From an uncultured Candidatus Bathyarchaeia archaeon (GTDB taxonomy: Archaea; Thermoproteota; Bathyarchaeia; 40CM-2-53-6; RBG-13-38-9), in NCBI GenBank assembly GCA_964480955.1, contig CAYZRW010000005.1:26279-90278 (forward strand): 64,000 nucleotides of DNA, given 5' to 3'. The translations under genes were made by a program, and so were the position numbers. Each line of letters begins with the position of its first letter. The first letter of the stretch is position 1. The notes beneath the pieces are model-generated. The model was not told where the DNA came from. It did no database searches and was given only the letters and a program-made list of their open reading frames with translations. Positions 13,456 through 19,488 of this stretch are shown piece after piece.

Positions 13456-14691
13456 TTGGGGTCTCCACCAGTTCAACCTGAAGTCAACATCGGCACTCTC
13501 GGGCATGTTGACAACGGCAAGAGTACTTTGGTCCAGGCATTGACAGACATATGGACCGCAAGGCACTCAGAGGAACTCAGAAGGGGCATAACCATCAGGA
13601 TAGGGTATGCAGACGCATATTTCTACAAGTGTCCGTCACATAGAGGGGCAGCTGCGTTCTGCGCCAGAAAGAAATGTCCTGTCTGCGGTTCAGAGACGAA
13701 ATTCCTGAGGGCTGCGAGTTTCATTGATTGCCCAGGACACCACAGCCTGATGGTGACGATGCTCTCGGGAGCCGCTTTGATGGATGGAGCGCTTTTCGTA
13801 GTCGCCGCAGACGCAAAGTTCCCTCAAGCTCAGGATCGTGAACACCTACTGGCAGCTGAGATGACTGGAATCAAGAGACTGATAATCGTTCAGAACAAGA
13901 TAGACATAGTCGACCGAGAGCGGGCTATCGAGAACATGAAGGAGATTCAGAAGTTCGTGAAGGACAGACCTGCGGAGAAGGCGCCAATAGTACCCGTCTC
14001 GGCCCAGCATGGCGTAAACGTAGATCTGTTGATAGAGGCGATTGAGAGGGAGATCCCGACACCCAAGAGAAATCCTTCAACCTCACCCCAGATGTATGTC
14101 CTCAGGTCTTTTGACATAAATAAGCCAGGAACTAAAGCCGAACAATTACGCGGCGGTGTCCTAGGCGGATCAATCGTTCAGGGAGTTTTTCGCCTCGGTG
14201 AAGAGATTGAGATAAGGCCGGGCTTGAAGACTGAGAGCGGCGGCAAGACCTCTTACCAATCTATATTCACGAAGATCAAGAGTCTCCGTGTGAGCGGGGG
14301 AGAGGTTGAACAGGTAGGTTCTGGCGGCCTAGTCGGAATAGGTACCTCCCTCTGCCCCTCAGTGACAAAGGCCGATAGCCTAGTCGGCAGCATAGTTGGA
14401 AGGGAAGGCGGTCTTCCTCCCGTCCTTGACAAGGTGACTCTGGACGTCGAGCTATTCGAGAAGGCCGTAGGTACGGAGGAACTCGTTGCCGTTGAGAAGG
14501 TAAGGACGAACGAGCCTCTGGTTCTTAATGTCGCCACCGCCGTGACTTCTGGAGTTGTCACTTCAGCACGTGAAGACATAATCGACATATCTTTGAAGAG
14601 GCCGATTTGTGCAGATACGAACTTCAAGGCCGCCCTGAGCAGAAGGATAGGTGATAGCTGGCGTCTAATCGGCTACGGAACTTTCAAGTGA
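13456..14691 (+). CDS. eif2g: Translation initiation factor aIF2 gamma subunit
   Basis: GHVDNGKST P-loop, DCPGH, NKID and a zinc-ribbon insert (CPSHR...CPVCG). Confidence 0.9.
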   Translation: MGSPPVQPEVNIGTLGHVDNGKSTLVQALTDIWTARHSEELRRGITIRIGYADAYFYKCPSHRGAAAFCARKKCPVCGSETKFLRAASFIDCPGHHSLMVTMLSGAALMDGALFVVAADAKFPQAQDREHLLAAEMTGIKRLIIVQNKIDIVDRERAIENMKEIQKFVKDRPAEKAPIVPVSAQHGVNVDLLIEAIEREIPTPKRNPSTSPQMYVLRSFDINKPGTKAEQLRGGVLGGSIVQGVFRLGEEIEIRPGLKTESGGKTSYQSIFTKIKSLRVSGGEVEQVGSGGLVGIGTSLCPSVTKADSLVGSIVGREGGLPPVLDKVTLDVELFEKAVGTEELVAVEKVRTNEPLVLNVATAVTSGVVTSAREDIIDISLKRPICADTNFKAALSRRIGDSWRLIGYGTFK

Positions 14692-17580: not shown

Positions 17581-19406
17581 CTAGATGTTCCAAAGTGGGT
17601 TCTCCTTTCTCATTATCTCTGTTAGTTCCTCTAGGACTCCCATTTCGTCAGGGCTTAAGTGCTCTCTGAGTCGTATGGAAAACTCTCTTGCTGATTGTTC
17701 TGGAACTGCCACATAGAGTATGTCTCCCTCGAAGACGCTCCTACCAATTACCGCCTTGTCTACTGAGACTGCGATCTGCATTCCAGCTCTCGCTTCATCA
17801 ATATCTGTTCCTTTGTCTTGGAGCCTCATAACGGTTCCAATCTTCTTTCCGCCCTTGTTTACTAGTGGATATTTCTGTCTTATCGTTCCAGCTAGGATCT
17901 CTACTCCAAATATCGCAGGTTTACTGTGTCTGAAGATGTATCCAGTGAGGACCCGCATCTTTCCAGGTCTGACGTGGCGGTCAAGCTCCGCCTTCACACT
18001 GGCGGCTTTCTCGGCCTCGACCCACCTCGAGTAGCCGTCTAGTAGATCATATATTACGTCAGCCCGCATTATCAGGATATTTCTCCTCTTAGCCTCCTCC
18101 TCTGCGTCAGGAAGTGTCTTGACATTAAATCCTAGGACTACGCCGAGCAACCGATCTTTTTCCCTGACTATGTCTGCCTCAATAACCTCACGTTTGGAGA
18201 TGTCGCCCACATCAGCAAATCTTATTGGTGTACCTGATTTGTTCAGAGAAGCTGTTATAGCCTCTAGAGCGCCAAGCGTATCGGTCTTGAGGACGACTCC
18301 GTTCTTGTCTGTTTTGATTCTCAATCTCTCAAATTCCTCCTCGACAGTCTTCGCATAGGCTTCAGGAGACTCGGCTTTTGGGACCGCGTATAGGGACGAA
18401 CCTGCTAGTGCTTTCTCTAGGTCTGGGGCCACAATCTTGATGCCTGAGGCTGCCCTTACGCTACGAACGCTCGAGAATCTGTCTCGTGGATCTCTTATCT
18501 CGTCTAGGGGTTTGGGTACTAGGATGGCTCTTACGGTGGTCACTATTGGGCCTTCTTTGCCACCTAAGGCTATCTGGTCACCTACGTTCAGGATACCGTC
18601 GTAGGTGATCGCGTTCACGGTGACGCCTAAACCGACCTCTTCTTTGACTTCTAGAATAGTCCCTTTTGCGGAGCCGGTTGTTGTCAATAGTTCTTCCTTC
18701 ATGTATGATTGCGTCAATCCAACCACTAGTGCGAGAAGTTCTGGGATTCCTTCGCCGGTCTTTGCGCTTGTTGGAACGATGGCAACGGTCTTGGTGAAGT
18801 CCTTAATCCTGTCAAACCTCTCGGCGTATAATCCAAATCTGGATAGTGAACCCACGACCGTGTAGATTCTGTTATCGACTTCTCTCTGGACTTCTGGCGG
18901 CTGCTGGAAGATTGAGCTACTTATGGATCTTGTGCCGGTTCTCCTCCATCCAGGCACTAGGTCTATCTTGTTGGCGGCGACGACGAAGGGTGTCTTTCGC
19001 GTCTTCAATATTCCTATGGACTCCTCGGTTTGAGGTTCGACGCCCTTGGTCAGGTCTATAACTAGTATCGCTATGTCTGCTGCGGATCCTCCTCGGCGGC
19101 GTAGGTTTGAGAAACTCTCGTGGCCGGGTGTGTCGATGAATAGTAAACCGGGGATGTTTATCTGGAACTTGAATTTCTCAAGGGCTTCTCCATAAGCCTC
19201 CTTGATGTTTTCTGCTGGAAGGAGACTTGCTCCGATCCACTGGGTTATTTGGCCAGGCTCCCTCTTCGCAACTGAGGTTCCTCTGATCTGGTCGAGGAGT
19301 GTTGTTTTACCGTGGTCTACCTAGCCCGTCGCGGCTACACCAGAATACTCTACGACGTATGGCCTAGGACCACGACAATCGGCTGACGTAGCGACAACGG
19401 TGGCAT
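17581..19406 (-). CDS. infB: Translation initiation factor aIF5B (IF2 homologue), interrupted by a 38-nt intron. Exon 1 is 19359..19406 and exon 2 is 17581..19320.
   Basis: Exon 1 encodes MPPLSLRQPIVVVLGH, 16 aa from an ATG at 19406. Exon 2 encodes VDHGKTTLLDQIRGT...DTPGHESF...NKID... through to the stop at 17581. Joined directly, the two give the canonical P-loop VVVLGHVDHGKTTLLD and a protein of about 595 aa. Read unspliced, the message hits an in-frame TAG within the intervening 38 nt. Confidence 0.85.
19321..19358 (-). other. 38-nt bulge-helix-bulge (BHB) intron in the infB pre-mRNA
   Basis: The RNA reads ...GGUC CUA GGCC AU|A CGUCG (21-nt loop) CGACG GGCU AG|G UAG ACC... It has a 5-bp inner helix (CGUCG/CGACG) and a 4-bp central helix (GGCC/GGCU, one G·U pair). 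Two 3-nt bulges (AUA and AGG) each carry a splice site between nt 2 and 3. A 3-bp outer helix (CUA/UAG) closes the motif. Excising the 38 nt (38 mod 3 = 2) restores the reading frame. Confidence 0.8.
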
Positions 19407-19488
19407 CTCCTGCAGTCCATTGAGTGTTGGCTACCTTAAGTACTATACTGCCGAGGCTTGAATTTTCGAGTTGTTACTGTAGGCCTAA

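Follow-up and report, generated by a model that had tools for sequence, protein, structure and literature searches.

A probable bulge-helix-bulge intron in the P-loop codons of a Bathyarchaeia aIF5B gene

How might an archaeon make an essential translation factor from a gene whose reading frame is broken within the codons of its nucleotide-binding motif? This question is raised by infB, the gene for the initiation GTPase aIF5B, on the minus strand of a contig placed with a Bathyarchaeia archaeon (CAYZRW010000005.1; assembly GCA_964480955.1). We analyzed a stretch of 64,000 nucleotides (nt) of this contig, referred to here as the window, in which the single-copy, syntenic aIF5B gene lies in a conserved cluster with the order S28e-L24e-NDK-aIF5B-S6e-S24e-S27ae. 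An earlier note on this DNA had proposed that 38 nt inserted into infB form a bulge-helix-bulge (BHB) intron. Our results make it very probable that the 38 nt are a BHB pre-mRNA intron within the aIF5B coding sequence, cut by the tRNA-splicing endonuclease EndA and ligated by RtcB. The interrupted gene is laid out as follows:

19359 to 19406, minus strand: coding part of exon 1, reading MPPLSLRQPIVVVLGH from the ATG at 19406 and MSLRQPIVVVLGH from the conserved TTG at 19397-19395.
19321 to 19358, minus strand: the probable 38-nt BHB intron, with an inner helix of 19357-19352 paired with 19332-19327, a loop at 19351-19333 and GGCU at 19326-19323.
17581 to 19320, minus strand: exon 2 of infB/aIF5B, from VDHGKTT... 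to the stop codon at 17583-17581.

Homology to aIF5B in exon 1, whose protein ends ...RQPIVVVLGH, stops at ...GTC CTA GGC CAT, the last base of which is 19359, and the insert ACGTCGTAGAGTATTCTGGTGTAGCCGCGACGGGCTAG (38 nt, 19358 to 19321) follows directly. Exon 2 starts at 19320 (GTA GAC CAC GGT AAA), with a protein that opens VDHGKTTLLDQIRG..., and remains open until the stop codon. When the exon-1 frame is read into the insert, the codons are ACG TCG TAG, so that translation would end as GH-TS-stop; the insert length leaves a remainder of 2 on division by 3, and exon 2 lies in the +2 frame relative to exon 1. Excision in silico gives ...RQPIVVVLGHVDHGKTTLLD... and a protein of 595 residues from ATG 19406, or 592 from the TTG. 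Residues 5-594 of the joined protein cover positions 8-597 of the 598 in NCBIfam NF003078, the archaeal IF-2/aIF5B equivalog, with a score of 817 bits against a cut-off of 468. The boundaries leave no room for slippage, as the last base of exon 1 (T) differs from the last base of the intron (G) and the first base of the intron (A) differs from the first base of exon 2 (G). Thus, the earlier description of a 38-nt interruption with an in-frame TAG, a +2 shift and unambiguous boundaries is accurate, and excision restores a full-length aIF5B.

The window also encodes aIF2-gamma (13456-14691, plus strand), a paralogous translation GTPase, and its P-loop, GHVDNGKS, is uninterrupted. The intron is therefore specific to aIF5B and does not generally accompany P-loop codons in this genome. 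We found no further copy of the 38-nt intron within the 64-kb window, and searches of the locus with Rfam and ARAGORN returned no match for the intron and no tRNA or rRNA body.

Does the insert have the structure of an EndA substrate? The exon ends and the insert fold into the following elements:

19365 to 19378, minus strand: 5' strand of the outer helix, consisting of the extension (19378-19369), a bulged C (19368) and CUA (19367-19365).
19361 to 19364, minus strand: 5' strand of the central helix, GGCC, formed by the last exon-1 codons (GGC-C).
19358 to 19360, minus strand: 5' bulge AU|A, with the cut predicted between 19359 and 19358; unpaired in the minimum free energy (MFE) fold.
19320 to 19322, minus strand: 3' bulge AG|G, with the cut predicted between 19321 and 19320; an alternative register competes here in the MFE fold.
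19307 to 19319, minus strand: 3' strand of the outer helix in exon 2, consisting of UAG (19319-19317) and the extension ACCACGGUAA (19316-19307).

The central helix, GGCC/GGCU, has 4 bp including one G.U pair and is flanked by the bulges AU|A and AG|G, each predicted to be cut after its second base. Beyond it lie the outer helix CUA/UAG, followed by one bulged C and approximately 10 further exon-exon pairs (GUCGUGGU/ACCACGGU...), and on the other side an inner helix of 6 bp, CGUCGU/GCGACG. Folding bore out the outer helix-bulge-helix-bulge-inner helix (hBHBh') geometry that had been described, with the same central helix, bulges and outer CUA/UAG; the inner helix had been given as CGUCG/CGACG, and although those pairs form, the helix is one U.G pair longer than claimed. 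The rule that governs cleavage in tRNA precursors, a cut after base 2 of each 3-nt bulge, places the cuts exactly on both frame-restoring bonds.

A motif of this kind is not rare in itself. A scanner for the strict hBHBh' motif (4-bp central helix, 3-nt bulges cut after base 2, inner and outer helices of at least 3 bp each) returned 915 candidates on both strands of the window for lengths of 12-150, which corresponds to a chance rate of about 5e-5 per pair of 5' and 3' sites (915 in 2 x 64 kb x 138 lengths). Because the strict motif is so frequent by chance, its significance comes from its placement on the frame-restoring pair of bonds and from its recurrence in 13 further distinct sequences.

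We gathered 164 aIF5B loci by drawing on JGI metagenomes, species-representative genomes and the loci behind protein matches, and the ...RQP..GH[VI]D.GK... region is uninterrupted in 145 of these. The intron-bearing set consists of 14 distinct sequences: 10 in clade 1, namely the window, L083, L001, L082, L063 (identical to L081), L004 and L161-L164, and 4 in clade 2, a BA2-like group (L041, L058, L059 and L062). All members of clade 1 are split at the same bond as the window by inserts of quite different sequence. The insertion site in relatives' infB had been suggested as a check, and nine further distinct Bathyarchaeia sequences proved to be interrupted there, 8 of them by a strict BHB; with the window, a strict motif that restores GHVDHGKT is thus present in 9 of the 10. 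The clade-1 introns are 35, 36, 37, 38 or 42 nt long, and since every length class modulo 3 occurs, only excision explains these lengths.

In clade 2 the insert is 31-32 nt long, is unrelated in sequence to those of clade 1 and lies one nucleotide further downstream. It too forms a strict BHB, with the central helix GGCA/UGCC, bulges UA|A and AG|U, and an inner helix that is either CUCAGC/GCUGGG or CCUAAC/GUUGGG, a compensatory change within the clade. The predicted cuts restore GHIDTGKT with no residue gained or lost, as in clade 1, and the mature codon A|UC specifies Ile, the same residue as in the nearest intron-less relatives. Taken across both clades, 13 of the 14 distinct introns have a 4-bp helix between two 3-nt bulges on opposite strands, the exception being L164. 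Inner helices range from 3 to 12 bp, and the outer helix has 3-4 bp, then a bulged C and then about 8-10 more pairs. The strict scanner gave one solution restoring [RK]QP..GH[VI]D.GK in eleven split loci and in L161-L163, and for L162 and L163 the MFE fold is exactly the canonical BHB.

An obvious concern is that the interruption might be an assembly or sequencing artefact, given that the contig comes from a metagenome-assembled genome (MAG). However, the 14 distinct sequences derive from different projects and assemblers, and they differ in sequence while sharing the same architecture. The interruption is also seen in independent data, including GenBank/ENA MAGs, JGI metagenome contigs and Logan assemblies of SRA runs. 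An artefact is scarcely credible as an explanation.

The lengths and sequences of the inserts also bear on translational recoding, in which no RNA would be spliced and the ribosome would either hop over the 38 nt, as on T4 gene 60, or shift frame. The resemblance to gene 60 is real: in both, the coding sequence is interrupted by a short stretch that would go untranslated and that contains a hairpin, and a stop comes right after the take-off position, here two codons past it. Furthermore, exon 1 and the intron end in the same codon in L004 and L063 (CAC/CAC in each) and in L163 (CAU/CAU). Gene 60, however, needs matched take-off and landing codons, and these are absent from 7 of the 10 clade-1 sequences, namely the window (CAU versus UAG), L001, L082, L083, L161, L162 and L164; where they do occur, the match results from the near-palindromic central helix (GGCC/GGNC). 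Frameshifting is contradicted by gap lengths that span all residues modulo 3 and by an in-frame stop within or right after each gap. What aIF5B conserves is BHB-type pairing, including that of exon synonymous sites, rather than a nascent-peptide or take-off signal. We consider recoding very unlikely.

The interpretation of the insert as an intron is further supported by covariation, which we assessed for 21 pairs in the 10-sequence clade-1 alignment, with controls in which the 3' partner was slid by 1-3 columns and with 500 column shuffles. The sample is small (10 sequences in clade 1 and 4 in clade 2), and within it 94.8% of the cells are paired versus 28-43% in the slid controls; the observed covariation measures were reached by just 1-28 of the 500 shuffles. 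Pairing is maintained in 97.5% of the cells in the central helix, where 3 of the 4 pairs switch between G-C and G.U, and in 98.2% in the outer helix. In the inner helix, 4 of the 6 pairs have changed on both sides.

The exon flanks carry a corresponding signature. Clade-1 flanks read CTA GGY CAY | GTA GAC CAC, whereas the intron-less sister clade has CTT GGA CAC GTT GAC CAT, and the synonymous sites of GTA GAC CAC that are fixed in sequences with the intron vary in that sister clade. Clade-2 flanks read CTC GGG CAT A|TC GAC, compared with GGT CAC ATC GAC in intron-less relatives. In these alignments the exon synonymous sites track the presence of the intron and are fixed in states that allow pairing. 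All 7 of the variable columns in exon 1 are synonymous in the 10-sequence alignment, and both exons are under purifying selection.

These findings are difficult to reconcile with a pseudogene or disrupted copy, the function of which would be supplied by a second, intact infB elsewhere. Such an explanation would account for the broken frame and for the truncated products given by gene callers, and only 64 kb of the genome is in view. Nonetheless, selection on both exons extends across at least 10 species, every one of which has the break at exactly the same phosphodiester bond. The gene also keeps its ribosomal-protein neighborhood, and pairing places a further constraint on the synonymous sites of the exons. 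Moreover, the loci returned by our search include no second infB for seven intron-bearing assemblies. We give the pseudogene explanation very little credence. What the locus contains is a strict, evolutionarily maintained EndA-type substrate placed exactly on the bonds that have to be broken and rejoined.

How, then, would the intron be removed? In the model that we favor, the end of exon 1 in the pre-mRNA (GUC GUG GUC CUA GGC CAU) would pair with the intron GGCU and the start of exon 2 (G UAG ACC ACG G) to form, in order, the outer helix, a 3-nt bulge, the 4-bp helix, a second 3-nt bulge and the inner helix. Within each bulge EndA would cleave behind the second base (CAU|A and AG|G), leaving a 2',3'-cyclic phosphate and a 5'-OH, and an RtcB-type ligase would join the exons into ...GGC CAU GUA GAC... 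with an intact P-loop, GHVDHGKT. The mature mRNA would be 38 nt shorter, with the junction ...GTCCTAGGCCAT|GTAGACCACGG... and the junction-spanning peptide ...IVVVLGHVDHGK..., and the intron would be released, probably as a circle with the predicted junction ...GGGCTAG|ACGTCGTAG.... We infer EndA cleavage, RtcB ligation and circularization from what is known of archaeal tRNA, rRNA and cbf5 splicing; any regulatory consequence is likewise hypothetical. An unspliced message from the window would yield a peptide of about 15-18 residues that ends at the UAG after two intron codons. For all 14 introns, the unspliced frame meets a stop 2-12 codons past the His codon, which corresponds to peptides of about 15-28 residues; in L001 and L082, which have 35-nt introns, this stop is the TAG within the conserved sequence that opens exon 2 (G-TAG-AC), and in the others it lies inside the intron.

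The earlier note had suggested that a heterotetrameric (alpha-beta)2 endonuclease of relaxed specificity might be involved. Such an enzyme is not required, because the motif is strict and should be a substrate for all four EndA architectures. One may also imagine a real intervening sequence dealt with by another route than EndA and RtcB, either through a different endonuclease or because the functional product is an exon-2-only protein accompanied by a small exon-1 peptide. Our analysis identified no enzyme, and public gene calls start at internal codons. On the other hand, a protein made from exon 2 alone would be missing the first glycine and the histidine of the GxxxxGKT P-loop and, in most of the calls, the whole of G1-G3, and a strict BHB with symmetric cuts on frame-restoring bonds matches the substrate rule of EndA exactly. 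To our knowledge, no other archaeal activity excises such elements, and we assign this alternative only slight probability. A group I or group II intron or an intein is ruled out by the 38-nt size, the stop codon and the lack of an Rfam match, and a C/D-box small RNA within the intron was dismissed because no convincing boxes were seen by eye and 38 nt is too short.

Several observations weigh against excision by EndA and RtcB. The canonical BHB conformer of the window lies 2.0 kcal/mol above the MFE (-25.6 versus -27.6), which adopts another register beside the 3' bulge, and the pairs at the 3' bulge have a low ensemble probability in the window sequence. The fold is only moderately better than shuffled sequences (z-score -1.95). 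Two clade-1 members are slightly relaxed, namely L164, whose central helix contains one G.A mismatch, and L083, whose inner helix has just 3 bp. Eight exact predicted spliced proteins are absent from a collection of 15 billion proteins, and the collections contain no cDNA-like spliced contig or protein, the close matches (at least 70% identity, among the 120 best listed) being all truncated; this absence of spliced sequences speaks neither for nor against splicing. Finally, there is no EndA or RtcB gene among the 20 open reading frames (ORFs) of the window that were scanned with Pfam. Both enzymes are assumed to be present in the host genome on the basis of general knowledge of archaea.

The distribution of the intron provides insight into its history. 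In a neighbor-joining tree of the proteins, clade 1 is monophyletic with an intron-less sister group, whereas intron-bearing and intron-less genes are interleaved in clade 2, where L058 (with intron) and L052 (without) share 94% amino acid identity. More than 100 intron-less sequences separate the two clades in the tree. The insertion bonds are adjacent, GH|VD in phase 0 for clade 1 and GH-A|UC in phase 1 for clade 2. Given the unrelated intron sequences, positions that differ by 1 nt and the intervening intron-less sequences, two independent gains at adjacent bonds appear more parsimonious than a single origin of both intron clades. The patchy distribution within clade 2 suggests a nearly neutral element that is gained and lost rather than an indispensable regulator, and a pattern of gain and loss has likewise been described for cbf5 introns (PMC2738675).

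Why might the same site have been hit twice? Of the eleven exon-exon pairs, a mean of 7.7 are formed in the 113 distinct intron-less flanks (L003-L160), versus about 4 expected at random. The outer helix is thus largely pre-formed without the intron, because the VVVL and DHG codons are partly self-complementary, and this self-complementarity may be the reason for the two insertions. A more speculative proposal, which we regard as possible but doubtful, is that small mobile BHB introns land repeatedly in the P-loop codons of aIF5B. Under this proposal, BHB introns may enter mRNAs at a ready-made exon helix and later be lost precisely, as in the BA2-like clade; they might enter through the EndA/ligase reaction running in reverse, with retro-integration as the next step. 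If this is true, archaeal pre-mRNA splicing would be more common than the single case of cbf5 suggests.

An insert near this site also occurs outside Bathyarchaeia, which the proposal of repeated landing takes into account. In a MAG of Jordarchaeales (Asgard; JAWCFL010000001.1, L078:3950-4010), the aIF5B P-loop is interrupted as well, but a few codons further along than in Bathyarchaeia, as GHIDHGK | 29 nt | TLLLDAIRG. Within the insert, a hairpin of 10 bp is accompanied by a 4-bp helix (UGGC/GCUA) and, on the 5' side, by an AAA bulge. We rejected it as a canonical BHB, since symmetric cuts would remove 31 nt and leave the frame broken, and only the removal of 29 nt restores it. This leaves two readings, a relaxed bulge-helix-loop intron and an indel of the MAG.

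How does the aIF5B intron compare with known systems? The closest precedent is the intron in the cbf5 pre-mRNA of Crenarchaeota, reportedly described by Watanabe in 2002 and treated by Yokobori in 2009 (PMC2738675). Both are short BHB introns in a coding sequence that break the frame and lead to misannotation as a split or frameshifted gene (PMC2738675). Both also have a patchy phylogeny that implies gain and precise loss, and in both cases the cutting enzyme is presumed to be the tRNA-splicing endonuclease. However, cbf5 encodes a pseudouridine synthase rather than a translation initiation GTPase, and its intron is found in Desulfurococcales, Sulfolobales and relatives such as Thermoproteales rather than in Bathyarchaeia. 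The cbf5 introns often have a relaxed motif, which has been linked to the (alpha-beta)2 enzyme (PMC2738675, PMC10485636), whereas the aIF5B motif is a strict hBHBh'. Splicing of cbf5 has been shown experimentally, while that of aIF5B is deduced here from comparative evidence. By this comparison the aIF5B intron works like the cbf5 and tRNA introns but, differing in gene and lineage, lies outside the cbf5 intron family.

The archaeal BHB introns of tRNA and rRNA, and the rRNA processing stems, share with it the 4-bp helix, the two opposite 3-nt bulges and the cut after base 2. The aIF5B introns, at 31-42 nt, fall inside the 11-175 nt range of tRNA introns (PMC2738675). In contrast to tRNA and rRNA introns, the exonic halves of the aIF5B motif are codons, such that the structure overlies a coding constraint, and there is no tRNA or rRNA body. 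In Haloferax volcanii, the HVO_1309 mRNA also carries a BHB that is cut by the splicing endonuclease; there, an alpha'2 enzyme cuts the element, indicating that non-crenarchaeal enzymes accept BHBs in mRNA (PMC7714728). The HVO_1309 element, however, lies in the 5' untranslated region (UTR) and interrupts no reading frame, whereas the aIF5B intron lies in coding sequence. Among eukaryotes, HAC1/XBP1 is analogous in the non-spliceosomal excision of a short, frame-shifting intron, in joining of the tRNA-ligase type (tRNA ligase or RtcB) and in a full-length message that can be translated only once spliced. It differs in using the IRE1 endonuclease on two stem-loops and in being a regulated stress switch.

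In the searchable literature up to 2020-2025, the archaeal mRNA substrates listed with a BHB are cbf5, in the coding sequence, and HVO_1309, in the 5' UTR (PMC7714728, PMC10485636, PMC12397907). A 2023 review counts two archaeal mRNA substrates in total, gives the number of genes spliced in this way as two or more and considers further discoveries likely (PMC10485636), and a 2025 paper still cites just the cbf5 papers (PMC12397907). We found no report of aIF5B in connection with a BHB, or of mRNA BHB introns in Bathyarchaeia, in the searchable literature, which is not proof that none has been published. The suggestion that a BHB intron in this gene is not an established case agrees with the searchable literature, in which cbf5 and HVO_1309 are the sole archaeal mRNA substrates.

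The locus would represent a second archaeal host gene with a BHB intron in its coding sequence, after cbf5 alone for more than 20 years. It concerns an essential, universal translation GTPase that is split within its nucleotide-binding motif, adds Bathyarchaeia as a new lineage and has a strict rather than a relaxed motif, outside the Crenarchaeota. The 14 distinct sequences, with introns at one or the other of two points 1 nt apart, apparently recent precise losses, and presence and absence at 94% identity, make the gain, loss and possible mobility of BHB introns testable. If splicing is confirmed, synthesis of a factor required for the joining of ribosomal subunits would depend on the tRNA-splicing machinery.

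There are also consequences for public annotation. For the same organism, the gene caller's product (P0008, 99% identical) has 475 residues and starts at the internal TTG 19008, the start also given in our ORF list. Every public protein of at least 70% identity among the 120 best matches listed is N-terminally truncated or miscalled, and we attribute these errors to the unrecognized intron; deposited aIF5B entries in this range are thus wrong, being either truncated or supplied with intron-encoded residues. The miscalled entries are P0001-P0012, P0014, P0029, P0030, P0032, P0033, P0044, P0045 and P0062, of which P0044 and P0062 have 64-65% identity. Truncated entries start with MLFIDTPGH..., MRGTTVAK... 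or MKTRKTPF..., and others start with intron-encoded residues, as in VTGHVDHGK, MAGQVDHGK and MGYVDHGK.

A search for other split genes in the window, combining a BHB scan with ORF joining, gave 149 candidates and no split gene, although the scan is too unspecific for short first exons. Candidates that joined two long ORFs were just adjacent ORFs (ilv-like and his-like N-termini, and, according to Pfam, DUF2070 beside Fe-ADH). Long tblastn matches in L070, L073 and L074 (4001 to about 6600) were considered as possible inteins and set aside, since L070 is a 596-residue aIF5B joined to the adjacent aIF2-gamma; L073 and L074 presumably have the same adjacency.

Finally, where does translation of exon 1 begin? 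Two elements upstream of the coding part are relevant:

19407 to 19410, minus strand: Shine-Dalgarno-like GGAG; GGAG/GAGG is conserved 8-10 nt upstream of the TTG in clade-1 loci.
19434 to 19450, minus strand: putative promoter with the TATA-like box CAGTATAGTACTTAAGG, proposed from its position and conservation.

The reading frame had previously been taken from ATG 19406, which directly abuts the GGAG and is not conserved in clade-1 loci. The TTG at 19397-19395, by contrast, lies 9 nt past the GGAG and lines up in each of the nine clade-1 loci examined, and its product, MSLRQPIV... of 592 residues, has the same start and length in intron-less relatives. The true start of infB is thus probably TTG 19397. 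Further upstream, the element (C)AnTATAATACTTAAG at 19450-19434 can be aligned in the majority of the nine clade-1 loci, with its spacing from the start unchanged. This TATA-like element occupies the gap that separates the NDK gene from the infB start, so that infB would have its own putative promoter and a short 5' UTR. With such a promoter, exon 1 would be a first exon of 13-16 codons, and the entire BHB would fall inside the first 110 nt or so of the transcript.

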